A program made the translations under genes and the position numbers. Source: a virus. Taken from it: a DNA stretch of 64,000 nucleotides. The stretch's first letter is position 1, and each line of letters opens with the position of its first letter. The notes below the pieces were generated by a model, which was given only the letters and a program-made list of their open reading frames with translations, searched no databases and was not told the DNA's origin. The stretch is taken from positions 1-64,000 of the IMG/VR virus record IMGVR_UViG_3300033149_006574. One strand, 5' to 3'. Of the stretch, positions 38,773 to 54,635 are shown piece after piece.

Positions 38773-39976
38773 GGCAAGAAGACCCCATCCGCAAGGGTGG
38801 GGATGAATTGCCTCTCTTGATTTTTAGGCAGAAGTAATATATCACATAAATATGAGATTAACATACAAATACAGACTTTTTCCCGCAAAGAAACACGAGA
38901 CAATTCTTGACAAGACATTGGAAGAATGTCGCTGGCTCTATAATCATTTCCTTAAAGAACGCAAAATTTCCTGGGAAAAGAATAAAAAATCTCTTAATTA
39001 TCATTCTCAAGCAGTATCCATTCCTAAACTTAAAAAGCAAAGACCATCTCTTAATTCCATATATTCTCAGGTCCTGCAGAACGTTGCTATTCGTGTTGAC
39101 CTTGCATTTAAGGCATTCTTCCGCAGAGTTAAATCTGGTGAAAAACCAGGTTATCCTCGCTTCAGAGGACAGGGTAGATATGATTCGTTTTGTTATCCTC
39201 AAACAGGATTCAAGATAATTAAGAATAAACTTAATCTTTCTAAAGTAGGTTCTATTGAAATCAAAATAAAAGGAATTATTAAGAACCTTACTATCAGAAA
39301 ACAGAGAGATAAATGGTATGCCTGTTTTTCCTGTGAAGTTAAGAGTAAACCTCTTAAAGAATCTAAACATGCTATTGGTATAGATATGGGACTTGAAACT
39401 TTTGCCACATTTTCTAATGGCCAAAAGATAGAAAATCCTCGCTTTTTCAAGACAGACCAAAAGGCACTTGCCAGAGCCCAAAGAAAATTGTCTAAACAGA
39501 AAAAAGGTTCTCTTGAAAGAAAGAAAGCTAAAAAGATTGTTGCTCGTATTCACGAAAGAATCTCTAATAGACGAAATAACTTTTGCCATCAGGAAGCAAG
39601 AAAGATTATCAATCGCTTTGGTATAATTTGTATTGAAGATTTGTCTATCAATCAAATGCAAAGAGACAACTTCAGAAGTATTAACAGGAGCATTGACGAT
39701 GTAGCGTGGGGACAATTTGCTCAATATCTCTCCTACAAAGCAGAATACGCTGGTAGGCAATTGATAAGAGTAAATCCTGCTTATACATCGCAAACTTGTT
39801 CTCGGTGCGGACAAAGACAAAAACTTAAATTGTCTGAACGTGTATATCATTGCAACTCCTGTGGTTTTTCGCTTGACCGAGATATAAATGCTTCTCTAAA
39901 CATTTTGAGATTGGGAACACAATCTCTTGGTATCCAATCCATAGAAGCCCCTTCCGTCAGGTAGGGGAATGTTCAC
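38773..39976 (+). mobile_element. IS200/IS605-family element (tnpB only, no tnpA)
   Basis: Left end GGCAAGAAGACCCCATCC-GCAA-GGGTGGGGATGAATTGCC; right end AGAAGCCCCT...AGGGGAATGTTCAC; removal restores the host ORF with no target duplication. Confidence 0.85.
38852..39964 (+). CDS. tnpB: RNA-guided endonuclease TnpB
   Basis: TYKYRL, GYPRF, RuvC GIDMG / IEDL / DRDINA, Zn finger CSRC..CNSC. Confidence 0.95.
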   Translation: MRLTYKYRLFPAKKHETILDKTLEECRWLYNHFLKERKISWEKNKKSLNYHSQAVSIPKLKKQRPSLNSIYSQVLQNVAIRVDLAFKAFFRRVKSGEKPGYPRFRGQGRYDSFCYPQTGFKIIKNKLNLSKVGSIEIKIKGIIKNLTIRKQRDKWYACFSCEVKSKPLKESKHAIGIDMGLETFATFSNGQKIENPRFFKTDQKALARAQRKLSKQKKGSLERKKAKKIVARIHERISNRRNNFCHQEARKIINRFGIICIEDLSINQMQRDNFRSINRSIDDVAWGQFAQYLSYKAEYAGRQLIRVNPAYTSQTCSRCGQRQKLKLSERVYHCNSCGFSLDRDINASLNILRLGTQSLGIQSIEAPSVR

Positions 39977-43118: not shown

Positions 43119-44441
43119 ATGGCTTCCAAAGAAATATTTCAGGATAAAGAAGCTGAAGAAGCTTTACTTGGTTGTTTCCTAATAGATAACAATATTTTAG
43201 ACCTTGCTCTTAGTTATTTAAAAAAGGAAGATTTTTATTTTAAAAAAAATCAATTTCTCTTTGAGCAAATGCTCAAAGTATATAAAAAGCAAGGTGCATT
43301 TGATTATGTTATATTATATCCATTAGTAAAACAACAAATATCCTCACAAGAACTTCTTGATTTAATGGAAAAGCCATCGACAGTTCAGATGGCAAATGCT
43401 TATCTAAAGCGTATAAAAATCCTCTCCTGTGAAAGACAAATACAGAATCTTGTTTTAAAATTACAAGGACAAAGTCAGTCAATAGATAACGTTCAGCTAA
43501 CAGAAAAAATAGGATTATTAAAAACAGAACTTAATAAAATAGAAAATGAATTAAATCTAGAAGAAGAATTTAATTTTCAAAAGGATTTAACCGAAACGCT
43601 GGAAATAACTGAAGAATTAACAAAAAAAGAATCATTAGCATTTCCAACAAATATACATATCTTTGACAAACATTTTGGAGGATTTCATAGACAAAGAATC
43701 TATATTCTTGGTGCAAGACCGGGGCATGGTAAAACCTCTTTCTTAGCATGGTTTACTGCTAATATTAGTAAATATGGATATAAAGTACTTTATATCAGTC
43801 CAGAAATGGCTAAAAAAGACCTTATTTTAAGAATGCTCTGTAGTCAGTCAAATATTGAGAATCGGATACTGGAGAATCCTAAACTATTAACAGAAGAAAA
43901 TTGGAAAGTTATAACAAATACTGCGGCTAAGATGTATGATTATAAAATAGCCATTTATGATAAAAAATGTTCCATTCAACATGTAAATTTTCTTGCCCAA
44001 AAAATAAAACCAGATATTTTAATTATTGATTACATACAGCATATGCAATTTAAAAGTATGGAATTTCGTGCTATAGAGATTAATAATATTATGAATGAGC
44101 TTAAAAATATAGCTAAAGAAAATAATTGCAGTGTTATTATAGCTAGTCAGATAAGCAGACAGATAGAGGAAAGGCAATCTAAACTACCAATGTCAAGTGA
44201 TTATAAAAGCTCTGGGAGTATAGAAGAAGGTGGAGATATGGCTATGTTTTTATTATGGCCATATAAATTTAATTTAAGAAATAATCCTAAAACACATTCT
44301 CCCTGGCAGGAAGAAGATAAACATATAATCACGATAGTTATATCGAAAAATAGATTTGGTCCGACAGGAGATTTTGAGTTAAGATTCAATTATGAGAATT
44401 ATTCTTTTGAAAATTTACAATTACTAAAAGGAGGAAGTTAA
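43119..44441 (+). CDS. dnaB: Replicative helicase DnaB
   Basis: EAEEALLG, GARPGHGKT, SPEM, IDYIQ, SQISR, SGSIEE, KNRFG. Confidence 0.95.
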   Translation: MASKEIFQDKEAEEALLGCFLIDNNILDLALSYLKKEDFYFKKNQFLFEQMLKVYKKQGAFDYVILYPLVKQQISSQELLDLMEKPSTVQMANAYLKRIKILSCERQIQNLVLKLQGQSQSIDNVQLTEKIGLLKTELNKIENELNLEEEFNFQKDLTETLEITEELTKKESLAFPTNIHIFDKHFGGFHRQRIYILGARPGHGKTSFLAWFTANISKYGYKVLYISPEMAKKDLILRMLCSQSNIENRILENPKLLTEENWKVITNTAAKMYDYKIAIYDKKCSIQHVNFLAQKIKPDILIIDYIQHMQFKSMEFRAIEINNIMNELKNIAKENNCSVIIASQISRQIEERQSKLPMSSDYKSSGSIEEGGDMAMFLLWPYKFNLRNNPKTHSPWQEEDKHIITIVISKNRFGPTGDFELRFNYENYSFENLQLLKGGS

Positions 44442-46398: not shown

Positions 46399-46692
46399 AT
46401 GCCAATAGATAAGAATGATTACCCGGAAAACTGGAAGGAAATTTCCTTAGCAATTCGTGAGCGTTATGGGCATCGCTGTCAGCGGTGCCATACCGTATCA
46501 AAACCCAAACATGTATTAACGGTTCATCATTTAGATATGGACCCGAAAAACAATTCACTTTCAAATCTGGTGCTTCTCTGTCAGAAGTGCCACCTGCATA
46601 TTCAGGCAAAGGGTAAGATGGACATGAACAGGTTTTATGACATTTTGAATGCGGAGAAGAACTTTGACAAAAGACAGGGGAAGCTGTTATGA
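46399..46692 (+). CDS. HNH endonuclease
   Basis: YP.NW, CQRC, LTVHHLD..N...NL..LCQKCH. Confidence 0.9.
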   Translation: MPIDKNDYPENWKEISLAIRERYGHRCQRCHTVSKPKHVLTVHHLDMDPKNNSLSNLVLLCQKCHLHIQAKGKMDMNRFYDILNAEKNFDKRQGKLL

Positions 46693-47505: not shown

Positions 47506-47736
47506 ATGGCTATCCGAAAGAAAACGGTTTGGGTTGCAAAATGTAACGGTCTATGCGGTAAAAGCATAATAAAAGATATTAATTTTATCTCGTTCTACTA
47601 CAAATCCGACCTGATTGCAGAACTAAAAAGGCAGGGATGGCATATAGAGAAATACGACAAGGTCTATTGCCCTTCTTGCTACAAAAAGAGACAGAGGGCA
47701 AAGGCACAAGTGAAAAAGAACAGGAGGAAGCCTTGA
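47506..47736 (+). CDS. Zn-binding hypothetical protein
   Basis: C...CG...GW...YCPSC. Confidence 0.6.
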   Translation: MAIRKKTVWVAKCNGLCGKSIIKDINFISFYYKSDLIAELKRQGWHIEKYDKVYCPSCYKKRQRAKAQVKKNRRKP

Positions 47737-48524
47737 CCTTCTTGAGCGTAATGTCTGGTTGCGGTGGAATGGATTTAGGAATAGAAAGGAGCGGATTCAA
47801 ATGCAAAGGACAAATAGAGATAATGCCATATGCTTTGAAAATCTTGAAGAAGCATTGGCCAAAAGTCCCGAAACATACGGACATCTTGACCTTTTGTGTG
47901 CGGGATGGCCTTGTCAGGACAATTCAATCGCAGGTAAAAGAAAGGGTATGCAGGGTAAAAGAAGCAGTTTATGGAGTGAAGTTAGAAGACTCATCGGAAT
48001 ATTCTACCCTAAATGGCTTATGCTCGAAAATGTTCCCGGACTTTTCTCTGTCAACAATGGCAAGGACTTCTGGCAAATCATATCCGACCTCGATTCGCTC
48101 GGGTATTGTGTGGCGTGGGATGTGCTGGACTCACAAAACTTTGGAGTGGCACAACGAAGAAAAAGAGTGTTCATTATCGGAAGTTTTGGAAACATCGGTG
48201 CATCCAAAATATTATTTGAGCCGAAAGGCAGTAGCAGGAATGATAAGGCGAAGCAAAAAATGGGGGCGAGGGGGTTATGTATTTCTACAAGAGATGGAGA
48301 AAGGAATGACCCGACGAATGAAACTATTATCGCTTCAACAATTGGAACAAGCACTAACCCCGACCCCAACTACGGAACACACTTCATCGCACAAACAATC
48401 GGAGCATCCCCAAGAGGTAATACTTCCTTTGTATGGCAAGACACTTATATTGCGGAAACTAACTCCCATAGAAAAAGAGAGATTACAGGGATTACCAGAC
48501 AATTGGACTCTCGTAGAGGAATAG
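47733..48524 (+). CDS. C5 cytosine methyltransferase subunit A (motifs I-III, beta-like segment, IX)
   Basis: AGGAGG-TTG 47733; SVMSGCGG, IE, HWP..TDI; SLSEVLE..PKYYLSRKA; LRKLTPIEKERLQGLPDNW. Confidence 0.75.
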   Translation: MTFLSVMSGCGGMDLGIERSGFKCKGQIEIMPYALKILKKHWPKVPKHTDILTFCVRDGLVRTIQSQVKERVCRVKEAVYGVKLEDSSEYSTLNGLCSKMFPDFSLSTMARTSGKSYPTSIRSGIVWRGMCWTHKTLEWHNEEKECSLSEVLETSVHPKYYLSRKAVAGMIRRSKKWGRGGYVFLQEMEKGMTRRMKLLSLQQLEQALTPTPTTEHTSSHKQSEHPQEVILPLYGKTLILRKLTPIEKERLQGLPDNWTLVEE

Positions 48525-48604
48525 TTATTGGCAATGCTGTTACTGTTCAGGTTGCACAATGGTTAGCGAAAAGAATTATAGATTATGAAAGAGGACTTTT
48601 ATGA
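47801..48604 (+). CDS. C5 cytosine methyltransferase subunit B (motifs IV-VIII and X)
   Basis: AAGGAG-ATG 47801; GWPCQ, ENVPG, QRRKRVFIIG, GNAVTVQV. Confidence 0.85.
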   Translation: MQRTNRDNAICFENLEEALAKSPETYGHLDLLCAGWPCQDNSIAGKRKGMQGKRSSLWSEVRRLIGIFYPKWLMLENVPGLFSVNNGKDFWQIISDLDSLGYCVAWDVLDSQNFGVAQRRKRVFIIGSFGNIGASKILFEPKGSSRNDKAKQKMGARGLCISTRDGERNDPTNETIIASTIGTSTNPDPNYGTHFIAQTIGASPRGNTSFVWQDTYIAETNSHRKREITGITRQLDSRRGIVIGNAVTVQVAQWLAKRIIDYERGLL

Positions 48605-49125
48605 CCAATTATCATAAAAACAGATTTGGCAGACGCTACACAGACCGTCTCACACACAAAATTTCTTATGTAATTGCGATATTCTTGCTTCTGACATACT
48701 TTTGTATGACAACCATAAAAATATCGCCTCAAAACGAAAATATGAGCCTCAAGAGCGATAATAAACAGGAGATAGAGGCAATCATTTCAGAGTTAGCTCC
48801 TCAATATGACCTTGACCCTGAATTGGTAAAAGCAATGGTTCAAGTAGAAAGTCAGTGGAAAGCAACCGCAAGAAGCAAGAAGGGCGCAATAGGTCTTATG
48901 CAGGTTATGCCAGAAGTATGCCAATTGTATGTGAAACCCCTGAATTTGAGCGCAGAGGAGGCAAGAAAGTTATTGTATCTAAAGAGGTTCAATCTCCATA
49001 TCGGAATGGCACACCTGAGGGCTTTGCAGGCAAGATGGGGTGATAAGGCATTGGACATATATTCTGGCGGTGCAAGGGATTATGTGAGCAAGATAAGATT
49101 GGCGATGAGGAAGGAGGAACGATGA
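48601..49125 (+). CDS. Lytic transglycosylase (SLT) with N-terminal membrane anchor
   Basis: LVKAMVQVES, GAIGLMQVMP, N..IG..L, YSGG. Confidence 0.9.
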   Translation: MTNYHKNRFGRRYTDRLTHKISYVIAIFLLLTYFCMTTIKISPQNENMSLKSDNKQEIEAIISELAPQYDLDPELVKAMVQVESQWKATARSKKGAIGLMQVMPEVCQLYVKPLNLSAEEARKLLYLKRFNLHIGMAHLRALQARWGDKALDIYSGGARDYVSKIRLAMRKEER

Positions 49126-49779: not shown

Positions 49780-50067
49780 ATGATGGACTACCCAATAATG
49801 GAACAATTAAATAAAATAGAAAAGTGGCCTATTAATTCCACAGATGACATAAAAAATTTAATTGATTATATAAGGCGACTATGGTGGTATTCAGAGACAG
49901 GTTTTGTTCTGAAAGGAAAACAGGTCTTACGATTAGAATTACATACATATGGCTGGAGCGGTAATGAAGATATAATAAGAGCATTAAGAAAAAATGATTT
50001 TTGGCTACTTTTCTGGGAAAAAAGCACAAGGGGCGGACATTATTGGTTTAAGATACCTTTATTTTGA
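49780..50067 (+). CDS. Conserved phage hypothetical protein
   Basis: LHT.GWSGNEDII.AL...W.S.RGGHY.F. Confidence 0.65.
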   Translation: MMDYPIMEQLNKIEKWPINSTDDIKNLIDYIRRLWWYSETGFVLKGKQVLRLELHTYGWSGNEDIIRALRKNDFWLLFWEKSTRGGHYWFKIPLF

Positions 50068-50080
50068 TTGGAGGTGGGAA

Positions 50081-50731
50081 ATGGAATATCCAAAAATCCA
50101 AACAATTTTCAAAAGAGATATGACCAAGAATGGCAAGATAATGGTTGACCATTATTCTATGCCAGAATTTGAATATCTGAAGGATAACAAATGGATATTT
50201 ACAGAGAAAGTAGATGGGACGAATATCAGGATAGAATGGAATGGCGAAATTGTAACAATAAAAGGAAAAACCGATAGAGCGTTAATACCAACCTTCCTTT
50301 TTATTCGCCTTCAAGAATTATTTGTTGAAAAAGATAGAACAAATATATTTAGAGAAGTATTTAGACCAAAAGATGATACAGAAAAAATAGATGTGTGTTT
50401 ATATGGTGAAGGATATGGCGCACGAATTCAAAAAGGCGGTGGAAATTATAAACCCGATGGGGTAGATTTTGTTTTAATAGACGTCAGAATTGGTTATTGG
50501 TGGCTTAAACGTGAAGATGTAGAAGATATTGCGAATAAGTTTGGAATAGAAGTTGTCCCAATAGTAGGAGAAGGAACATTGCAAGATATGGTAGAGAAGG
50601 TAAAAAATGGATTTAATTCTAAATGGGGCAATTTTTTGGCAGAAGGCATTGTAGCCAGACCAGAAATAGAATTAAAAGACAGAAAAGGCAGAAGGATAAT
50701 TACAAAACTGAAATATAAGGATTTCAAATGA
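50081..50731 (+). CDS. RNA ligase (Rnl2-like nucleotidyltransferase)
   Basis: YPKI, TEKVDGTN, LYGEGYG..IQK, F...DV, AEGIV, ITKLK; start ATG 50081 after GGAGG. Confidence 0.85.
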   Translation: MEYPKIQTIFKRDMTKNGKIMVDHYSMPEFEYLKDNKWIFTEKVDGTNIRIEWNGEIVTIKGKTDRALIPTFLFIRLQELFVEKDRTNIFREVFRPKDDTEKIDVCLYGEGYGARIQKGGGNYKPDGVDFVLIDVRIGYWWLKREDVEDIANKFGIEVVPIVGEGTLQDMVEKVKNGFNSKWGNFLAEGIVARPEIELKDRKGRRIITKLKYKDFK

Positions 50732-53141: not shown

Positions 53142-54635
53142 ATGAAAAAGCTCTTTAATGCTGAACAGGAATCATGGGTCTTACAAGAAATAGAAAAACA
53201 TTCATTTTTTGAGGATATTCTAAAGGGATTGGAAGATACTTGGAAATTAAAGGTAACTCCAACACAGTTCCGTAATTGGTGCGGGAACAAAAGAATAAAT
53301 TATCCTCCACATAAGAATGCCCCTGGTTATTCACCAGAGGAAATAGCATGGTTAAGGAAAAAGGCAGAGGAATATCAACCATATCCTATAAAGATGTGGG
53401 AAGTATTACAAGAATTTAATAAGAAATTTAGTCAACGCTCAAGGGCAGGATTACTTTCTAAATTAGAAGATTTGGGATATACTAATTTTGCATGGACTGA
53501 AAGCGGATATGAAAGAAAAGCAAAAAAAATGGGTTTGGTTGAAAAACAAGAGATGCCCCTCTCCTTTGAAATACTAGAGGCAAAATATCTAAGGGCATTA
53601 AATCTCCAAAAAAAGAAAAATAGGGAGCTTATAAGAAGAATAGCAGAACAAGAGACAATAAAAGAAGCAATAATTTCTCATATAGAGGCTTTACCACCAG
53701 CGCCGATTCCAACATTTCATCTTGAGGCAACAAAAAAATCTCATTTTCTACCAGTTGCATTACTTGGAGATTTACATGCAGGACAGATTGTAGTAAAGGA
53801 AGAAGTTGCGGGATTTGGTGAATATAATTGGTCAGTATTTGTAGCAAGATTTGAACATTGGGTAAATATGTTAATTCGTTTATGTATGGGAGATTTAAAA
53901 GAAAATTATGAAATGAATGAACTAGGAATATTAATGCTCGGAGATTTCGTTAGCGGTGAAATTCATGATGAATTAAAAGCTTCACAAAATATGGGTATGA
54001 TAGAGCAAGTAGTTATGACTGCTTTCGTATTAGCACAGGGACTAAGAGAATTAGCTCATTGGTTTGAAAGAATTGATATTGGTTGTGTTGTTGGAAATCA
54101 TGGAAGAATAACGCAAAAGCCAACATTCTCAAGAAATTGGCAAAGTTATGACTGGCTTGTTTATTTTATCGCAATGATAATGCTTAAAGAGCAGAAAAAT
54201 ATAATATGGAAATTACCAATGTCTTTCTTTGATCTAAAGGAATTTAATGGGCAACATTTTTGTTACATGCACGGGGACAACATACGAATGTATCAACAGA
54301 TCCCCCACTATTCGATAGAGCGAGCAATTGGTCGTATCACACAACTTTTAAATTCCAGGCGCCAATTTGCTGACTATTTCATATTTGGACATTTTCATAA
54401 TTCAGCTGATATTCAACAATGTACGGGCAGAAGGATAATAAATGGTGGCTTTGCAGGAGCAGATCCGTTCTCTTTAAAGGCAATGCTTGTTAGTGCGGAT
54501 CCGGAGCAATTAGTTTTAGGGGTTCATAGAGAAAAGGGTATTCCCTGGGAACGTAGAATAATGCTTAAATATGCTAAGCCTAAACCAGAAAAATATATCT
54601 ATCAAGTTCCTGAAATGGAAAACGCAGTTCTGTAA
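53142..54635 (+). CDS. Calcineurin-like metallophosphoesterase with N-terminal HTH/coiled-coil region
   Basis: GDLH, GD..SG..H, GNHGR, HGD, GHFH. Confidence 0.85.
   Translation: MKKLFNAEQESWVLQEIEKHSFFEDILKGLEDTWKLKVTPTQFRNWCGNKRINYPPHKNAPGYSPEEIAWLRKKAEEYQPYPIKMWEVLQEFNKKFSQRSRAGLLSKLEDLGYTNFAWTESGYERKAKKMGLVEKQEMPLSFEILEAKYLRALNLQKKKNRELIRRIAEQETIKEAIISHIEALPPAPIPTFHLEATKKSHFLPVALLGDLHAGQIVVKEEVAGFGEYNWSVFVARFEHWVNMLIRLCMGDLKENYEMNELGILMLGDFVSGEIHDELKASQNMGMIEQVVMTAFVLAQGLRELAHWFERIDIGCVVGNHGRITQKPTFSRNWQSYDWLVYFIAMIMLKEQKNIIWKLPMSFFDLKEFNGQHFCYMHGDNIRMYQQIPHYSIERAIGRITQLLNSRRQFADYFIFGHFHNSADIQQCTGRRIINGGFAGADPFSLKAMLVSADPEQLVLGVHREKGIPWERRIMLKYAKPKPEKYIYQVPEMENAVL

Follow-up and report, generated by a model that had tools for sequence, protein, structure and literature searches.

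The DNA analyzed here (the window, 64,000 nucleotides) corresponds to positions 1–64,000 of the 76.6-kb IMG/VR virus record IMGVR_UViG_3300033149_006574, which has direct terminal repeats. The locus under study spans ~0.87 kb of its plus strand and probably encodes a C5 DNA methyltransferase made of two chains, which are read from two overlapping frames. Frame A (chain A, 263 codons) extends from TTG 47733 to TAG 48524 and carries motifs I–III, a spacer, a segment with SLSEVLE..KYYLS (the gamma segment), and motif IX. Frame B (chain B, 267 codons) extends from ATG 47801 to TGA 48604 and carries an overprinted N terminus of 28 amino acids, motifs IV–VIII, putative recognition loops, and motif X. 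The two frames are one base apart and share 724 nt (47801–48524) of ~800 nt. Direct reading of the sequence reveals a Shine–Dalgarno-like AGGAGG at 47722–47727, 5 nt 5′ of the frame A start, and an AAGGAG at 47786–47791, 9 nt 5′ of the frame B ATG and within the frame A codons E-R-S of motif I. At the upstream end, the frame A TTG overlaps the TGA stop of a 76-amino-acid zinc-ribbon-like open reading frame (ORF) in the sequence TTGA (47733–47736), and at the downstream end, the frame B TGA overlaps the ATG of an SLT-type transglycosylase gene (48601–49125) in the sequence ATGA (48601–48604). These four-base start/stop overlaps at both ends suggest translational coupling. In most related loci, the frame A start codon is located 8 codons 5′ of GxGG, and a GAAAGG-type purine-rich sequence occupies the place of the frame B Shine–Dalgarno-like site. 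Of 115 B-like proteins, 107 have the frame B ATG at a distance of 36 or 34 codons upstream of PCQ; in two related loci (L004 and L008), frame B begins at other ATGs near PCQ.

The motifs of C5 methyltransferases, I (FxGxG), IV (PCQ), VI (ENV), VIII (QxRxR), IX, and X (GN.V), were all found, but they are distributed over the two frames. Frame A has motifs I and IX, frame B has motifs IV, VI, VIII, and X, and neither frame alone has the complete set. In the comparison with Pfam PF00145 (cut-off 22 bits), frame A matched profile positions 2–50 and 184–297 with 53.9 bits, and frame B matched positions 32–169 with 142.9 bits. Frame B also matched residues 68–191 of M.HhaI in a sequence search of the PDB (E value of 1e-16). 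When the locus was aligned, with frameshifts allowed, to its closest single-chain relatives, motifs I–III fell in frame A, motifs IV–VIII and the region following motif VIII in frame B, motif IX in frame A, and motif X in frame B. The copies of motifs I–III and IX in frame A are the only ones in the 76.6-kb record. The first-pass annotation of this DNA had reported both ORFs with their coordinates, the AGGAGG and AAGGAG sequences, and the division of the motifs between the frames, and all of these were verified from the sequence and with PF00145.

To which frame each segment belongs is indicated by the wobble pattern in a codon alignment of eight loci, in which the most variable codon position marks the frame under purifying selection. 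The segment of motifs I–III (47733–47885) extends from motif I (LSVMSGCGG, 47742–47768) through motif III (HTDI) and is selected in frame A; from 47801 to 47885, the third position of frame A is the most variable (0.35–0.45 versus 0.14–0.34). Frame B is a by-product here, and its 28 N-terminal codons show no selection of their own. In the segment of motifs IV–VIII (47886–48160), which contains PCQ (47909–47917), ENV (48026–48034), and QRRKR (from 48152), the selected frame is B, with a third-position variability of 0.40–0.65 from 47891 to 48160, and frame A is a stop-free spacer. The gamma segment (48161–48345) comprises CSLSEVLE (48168–48191), KYYLS (48207–48221), GMIRRSKKWGRGGYVF, and a hairpin plus a helix and is selected mainly in frame A, the frame-A-type wobble extending over 48161–48285. 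A first frame B patch, TRDGERNDPT (48287–48310), begins within this segment. The wobble is of frame B or mixed type over 48287–48420, of frame B type at 48287 and at 48383–48420, and no constraint was detected at 48347–48365. The recognition-loop segment (48346–48420) consists of a variable stretch followed by loops selected in frame B (FIAQTIGASPRGN.. from 48383). The stretch at about 48270–48340 is constrained in both frames, with near-invariant residues in each. In the motif IX segment (48421–48521), which includes LRKLTPIEKERLQGLPDN (48450–48503), selection returns to frame A, whose third position varies at 0.44–0.60 versus 0.11–0.29 for the other positions. The last segment (48503–48601), with GNAV of motif X (48530–48541) and the C-terminal helix, is selected in frame B (third position 0.48–0.68 from 48503), which is the only coding frame past 48524. 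In total, the most variable codon position changes frame about five times (A, B, A, B/mixed, A, and B along the locus). The A-B-A-B partition proposed in the first-pass annotation is correct as far as it goes, and the wobble signature resolves it into a finer A-B-A-B-A-B. That annotation put the frame switches required for a single polypeptide at three; the selection signature raises their number to about five.

The openness of both frames was evaluated against a null of synonymous-codon shuffles, which do not retain codon-pair context and were calibrated on relatives whose +1 frame is closed. Because these closed-frame relatives carry the number of stops predicted by the shuffles, the openness is not compositional. 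DNA-level statistics were obtained for ten loci and were complemented by a test that uses only protein sequences. In the window, shuffling of frame B gave 4.4 expected stops in frame A across motifs IV–VIII, and the probability of no stop was 0.0025. Across the same motifs, frame A has no stop in any of the ten loci, whereas 2.7–4.7 are expected (probability of zero stops 0.001–0.03 for each locus). Inside the segments selected in frame A, frame B is likewise free of stops (8 of 8 loci versus 1.6–4.0 expected stops). The protein-level test makes use of Met residues of frame B: a Met followed by Ile, Met, Thr, Asn, or Lys is encoded by ATG-A.. and forces a TGA in frame A. An alignment of 99 frame B homologues has 165 Met residues within the overlap (36 columns), none of which precedes one of these five residues, whereas 14 of 35 do so past the end of frame A. 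Such stop-free upkeep of both frames is what translation of both would predict; neither a stitched polypeptide nor a decayed gene predicts it.

The layout recurs in relatives. A search with frame B gave 835 homologues, and the best 120 cover 63–100% of the query (most at least 85%) with 45–69% identity, the window's own protein being excluded. Their alignment spans the odd N terminus and the region where motif IX would be expected, and in 111 of these 120, motifs IV, VI, and X are present but motifs I and IX are absent. On other contigs, gene finders have called ~85 proteins resembling chain A, with a query coverage of 55–100% (most at least 94%). Chain A matched 374 clusters (50% identity) with E values of 1e-10 or better, and GC-rich lineages with the same layout are among them. 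In nine fetched loci (L004–L008, L085–L087, and L165), motifs I–III and IX are located in the +1 frame of motifs IV–VIII. These loci are 40–62% identical and derive from viral, metagenomic, and Omnitrophota metagenome-assembled genome contigs. The search for homologs with both frames open and the same partition, which had been suggested as a check, thus yielded nine independent loci and ~200 called proteins. Since the I–IX partition recurs in all of these, indels as its cause are ruled out, and on this comparative evidence, the locus is neither a broken gene nor an assembly error.

Several relatives vary the layout. The A-like chains of the GC-rich lineages (P0232–P0246) have 330–567 amino acids and consist of motifs I–III, a full +1 domain with GILRRA.KRGR.LP..L..AL at its end, a long spacer of low complexity, and motif IX; PCQ and ENV occur in none of them, and they show the layout of the window on a larger scale. 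In L004 (2810–3745), motif X is also located in frame A, leaving frame B with motifs IV–VIII and loops only, and a second, ordinary methyltransferase gene lies ~1 kb upstream. In L008 (1334–2272), frame B ends directly after motif VIII. Homologues of chain B have from one to about five modules resembling xIAxTIG..NPDPNYGTH between motifs VIII and X (48290–48420 in the window; alignment columns 200–380), and frame A is open through every insertion of such a module. Tandem recognition modules are a feature of multispecific phage methyltransferases. The variable xIAxTIG modules may be several tandem recognition modules of this kind.

The +1 frame of motifs IV–VIII has a wider distribution than the layout of the window. 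A total of 244 fetched loci were sorted by the frame of motifs I–III, IX, and X relative to motifs IV–VIII. Besides ordinary single-frame genes, there were 12 loci with an EcoHK31I-like layout, in which only KYYLS and motif IX are in the +1 frame, 10 with a consecutive AquI-like split, and 8 with the layout of the window plus L004. Among the non-redundant single-frame genes, 55 of 65 have no +1 stop across motifs IV–VIII, versus 1.4–4.8 expected from shuffles. The genes that do have +1 stops carry the expected number, and eight of them group together in the core tree as a single clade with good support. Methyltransferases of the Prevotella type have a closed +1 frame with the expected number of stops. 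Across motifs IV–VIII, the single-frame loci contain on average 0.58 stops in the +1 frame versus 7.5 in the +2 frame. The hidden +1 ORF of these genes encodes 140–175 amino acids and ends with NTSE.P...CSLSEVLE..VP.KYYLS.KA..GILRRAEKRGK.LP, and in several of them, its start was read as an ATG near motif III. In the single-frame genes, the wobble signature flips to the +1 frame directly after motif VIII, where the hidden gene is thus under purifying selection of its own. Examples of the hidden gene, in the +1 frame of single-chain methyltransferase genes, are found at L100:1169–1642, L091:143–637, L093:208–723, L009:1475–1942, and L083:1475–1900. The ORF is open and conserved in 230 phage records, including 147 Streptococcus phages and the Clostridioides difficile phages phiMMP02, phiCD505, and CDKM9; among the records listed, a single product is annotated, usually the methyltransferase.

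The hidden +1 ORF matches PHROG 16143 (“DNA methyltransferase,” 139 positions). Residues 45–167 of chain A, which lie in the +1 frame across motifs IV–VIII, match positions 10–132 of the same family with an E value of 2.6e-11; in Pfam, neither the +1 protein nor the frame A spacer had a match. Chain A shares with PHROG 16143 the position and frame relative to motifs IV–VIII and the core NTSE.P...SLS.VLE..KYYLS. The two differ in that the PHROG protein is free-standing, ends with GILRRA.KRGK.LP, and accompanies a main frame with all ten motifs, whereas the +1 ORF of the window is fused N-terminally to motifs I–III and C-terminally to motif IX. A similar domain, Y(F/Y)L(T/S)PNAAEGILRRVD.QKRTLF.PLR, is fused in frame to the enzyme C terminus in the Prevotella-type methyltransferases (L187, 1930–2259, and L180). 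This fusion suggests that the +1 protein is a detachable methyltransferase module. Within the clade, the +1 frame is ancestral and predates the arrangement in the window.

The spacing of the motifs points to an origin of this arrangement. The distance from motif I to PCQ is 183 nt in single-frame relatives versus 152 nt in the window, and therefore a loss of 31 nt is likely. A net deletion of ~31 nt between TD(I/V) and DLL (motifs III and IV) would have fused motifs I–III to the resident +1 gene, and the rest of the enzyme would thereafter have been expressed from an internal ATG. In a tree of the 115-residue core, the layout of the window appears in two clusters, and the columns are too few to tell one origin from two.

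The structures predicted by AlphaFold2 (AF2) are in line with the division of the motifs. Chain A alone was confidently predicted at residues 1–55, 146–214, and 230–263, and residues 60–145 were disordered. Its predicted local distance difference test (pLDDT) values were 86–93 at residues 1–50, 80–93 at residues 146–214, and below 50 at residues 60–145. The N terminus of chain A matched that of HhaI at 1.7–1.9 Å. A Foldseek search of the PDB with chain A returned only matches of its N-terminal 48–53 residues to HhaI-like structures (best E value of 3e-3), and no clear match was found for the folded KYYLS segment. Chain B alone was confidently predicted at residues 10–142 and 240–267 and with low confidence at residues 143–238. 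The confident blocks of the separately folded chains are largely complementary. Modeling of the complex, which the first-pass annotation had proposed as a check, gave an ipSAE of 0.84 for the two chains (median of three runs) versus 0.01 for the best of three controls; for comparison, 58 of 80 solved complexes and 2 of 110 mismatched pairs attained the ipSAE mark. The runs share at least 64% of their contacts, and the pLDDT of the partner is at least 74. The contacts with the least error are those of chain B residues 30–33 (motif IV strand) with chain A residues 2–6 (motif I strand), of chain B residues 249–256 (motif X helix) with chain A residues 15–17 (motif I loop), and of chain B residues 104–105 with chain A residues 125–126. 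In single-chain C5 methyltransferases, the strands of motifs IV and I, as well as motif X and the loop of motif I, are in contact with each other. The predicted contacts of motif I with motifs IV and X would thus fit a single-chain fold. The model indicates that the split is sterically plausible and does not by itself demonstrate binding of the chains.

Here, we propose that the locus encodes an obligate two-chain C5 DNA methyltransferase whose chains are translated from a shared stretch of 724 nt, in two frames offset by one base, and we regard this as probable. The presence of both ORFs, their recurrence in relatives, the alternation of selection between them, and their maintained openness are established by the sequence data, and we infer that both frames are translated and that their products assemble into an active enzyme with a biological role. 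Chain A, initiated at TTG 47733, would provide the S-adenosylmethionine-binding motifs I–III, a stop-free spacer of ~90 residues, a small folded segment (SLSEVLE..KYYLS..GGYVF) homologous to the +1-frame protein found across the methyltransferase clade, and motif IX. Chain B, initiated at ATG 47801, would provide a short overprinted N terminus, the catalytic motifs IV–VIII, probable DNA-recognition loops, and motif X. Wherever one chain folds and is conserved, its partner would be a loop of equal length that needs only to be free of stops, and the two chains would interleave and rebuild one C5-methyltransferase fold. Two-chain assembly fits the behavior of split C5 methyltransferases, which complement each other (PMC3404938). 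The more detailed scheme, in which six segments alternate between the frames, each chain loops where the other folds, and the layout arose from a deletion that fused the cofactor-binding N terminus onto an older overprinted +1 gene, left unannotated in most phage C5 methyltransferases of the clade, is likely too, if slightly less so than the two-chain enzyme itself. The enzyme presumably methylates the DNA of the phage itself against host restriction. The heterodimeric methyltransferase from a dual-coding locus that had been postulated from the sequence alone is thus supported by the recurrence, the alternating selection, the openness of the frames, and the complex model.

Several points weigh against this proposal. 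The start codon of frame A is TTG. Conserved frame A codons (“ERxG” and “K/E-C”) account in part for the frame B ATG and its Shine–Dalgarno-like site, and because the ATG and this site are partly forced in this way, their conservation is not independent proof of initiation in frame B. The wobble analysis is based on eight loci only, and its signal in the recognition loops is weaker than elsewhere. These proposed loops (chain B residues 143–238) are, moreover, predicted to be disordered when the chain is folded alone. Finally, the complex score may reflect likeness to, or memory of, solved monomeric methyltransferases.

The uncertainty about initiation in frame B bears on an alternative in which a programmed −1 ribosomal frameshift takes place near 47880. 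A fraction of the ribosomes that start at the TTG and read motifs I–III would slip from frame A to frame B and produce a chain like the α chain of EcoHK31I, with motifs I–VIII, the recognition loops, and motif X, and the unshifted product would be a β chain with motif IX. One shift at the junction of motifs III and IV would indeed bring back the EcoHK31I layout, which 12 fetched loci have, the junction has a run of T (ACC TTT TGT), and the data do not call for the frame B ATG, because the first 28 codons of frame B are without selection of their own. However, the junction sequence lacks an X XXY YYZ heptamer (a downstream stimulatory structure was not sought), the ATG and the Shine–Dalgarno-like site are kept at a fixed distance in nearly all B-like proteins, and frame B of L004 and L008 begins at different ATGs in the vicinity of PCQ. 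Fragment complementation (PMC3404938) makes a frameshift unnecessary, and we consider this mechanism unlikely. A related but far less probable idea is a single polypeptide that joins all conserved segments through several frame switches or unusual decoding. The ordered conserved segments do reproduce a complete single-chain methyltransferase, but this would take about five switches, some in each direction, and it would remain unexplained why the frames stay stop-free through the segments that are skipped. To our knowledge, a polypeptide made by multiple switches has no precedent.

Just as improbable is the view that only one frame functions, the gene being decayed, frameshifted, or misassembled and the second frame open owing to composition. 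In favor of it, genes generally contain fewer stops in their +1 frame than in their +2 frame. However, the I–IX split is kept in independent assemblies at 40–62% identity, and relatives with a closed +1 frame do carry the stops predicted by the shuffles. Purifying selection acts in frame A on motifs I–III, KYYLS, and motif IX and in frame B on motifs IV–VIII and X, which argues against one functional frame, and neither chain has the full set of motifs. The comparative data thus contradict this view. Another possibility is that chain A has a separate role, as a regulator or decoy built on the clade-wide +1 protein, and that chain B has some other partner. The PHROG 16143 protein is also found in relatives whose main frame has all ten motifs, and since it is present beside complete main frames, the +1 protein must have some role beyond supplying missing motifs. 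For the window, however, a separate role would leave chain B without motifs I–III and IX, whose only copies in the virus record are in frame A; in addition, the frame A segments are under purifying selection, and the complex model puts them where the single-chain fold has them. We judge a separate role to be about as doubtful as the frameshift, and the obligate two-chain enzyme remains the preferred explanation.

The locus lies in a phage module of replication and nucleic acid metabolism, which includes a DnaB-like helicase, an HNH endonuclease, an RNA ligase, and an exonuclease (43119–44441, 46399–46692, 49994–50731, and 53142–54635). Because no restriction endonuclease was seen among the neighboring ORFs scanned, the methyltransferase looks like an orphan. 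Elsewhere in the window, two ORFs on opposite strands cover nearly the same DNA, one of 370 codons (38852–39964, plus strand) and one of 330 codons (38858–39850, minus strand). A blastn search of a phage collection gave only three short matches with 72–76% identity, all in the region of motifs VI–VIII, and no close cultured relative was found. When words sampled from 47600–48700 were searched in public sequencing runs, none of the runs held more than 6% of them and no RNA run was listed, a result that is uninformative on expression.

Gene callers keep one of the two ORFs and label it as a methyltransferase, although neither has the complete set of motifs; hundreds of database entries are therefore half-enzymes. 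The near-total overlap of 724 nt on the same strand of a DNA phage, in which both frames supply essential parts of one fold, also makes the locus of interest for the study of overlapping genes, and the handover of selection between the frames about five times offers an unusually clear natural system for shared constraint. If the +1 frame is already open and the fold can be split, indels can move segments between the chains without loss of function, which would act as a ratchet toward obligate heteromers.

Two-chain C5 methyltransferases are known, and a literature search for overprinted genes in phage methyltransferases returned nothing relevant beyond EcoHK31I and AquI. In M.AquI, the α subunit has motifs I–VIII and the β subunit has the distal part of the variable region with motifs IX and X, and artificial fragment complementation works for M.HhaI, M.BspRI, M.BsuRI, and M.SssI (PMC3404938). 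The locus described here resembles M.AquI and the artificial pairs in that a C5 fold is rebuilt from two separately made chains. In contrast to these head-to-tail splits, which have a single breakpoint separating motif VIII from the recognition domain, the chains of the window are interleaved and use the same nucleotides: motif X is in the frame of motifs IV–VIII, motifs I–III are in the frame of motif IX, and the ORFs are co-extensive.

The closest precedent is M.EcoHK31I (YGGCCR) from Escherichia coli HK31 (Lee, Kam and Shaw 1995, as described in PMC2836561 and PMC3404938). Its β chain, which supplies motif IX, is encoded wholly in another frame of the α gene, and the enzyme requires both chains (PMC2836561; PMC3404938); the first-pass annotation had likewise described a β chain encoded in an alternative frame inside α. 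In both systems, the second chain is encoded in the other frame inside the gene of the first chain, motif IX is located on the alternate-frame chain, and the catalytic chain has motifs IV–VIII, the recognition region, and motif X. The segment SLSEVLE..KYYLS also lies in the +1 frame of the EcoHK31I-like loci, and in the core tree, the 12 loci with that layout sit among the same mixed relatives as the window. The large chain of M.EcoHK31I, however, carries motifs I–VIII, whereas in the window, motifs I–III are on the alternate-frame chain together with motif IX; this chain extends over the entire catalytic core, the overlap is near-total, and the conserved pieces alternate between the frames six times. 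M.EcoHK31I has already been used as a split methyltransferase for targeted DNA methylation (PMC2836561), and the interleaved split of motifs I–III and IX from motifs IV–VIII and X offers a new template for such enzymes. The principle of an overprinted methyltransferase chain is thus already known from EcoHK31I, and the location of motifs I–III on that chain distinguishes the window.

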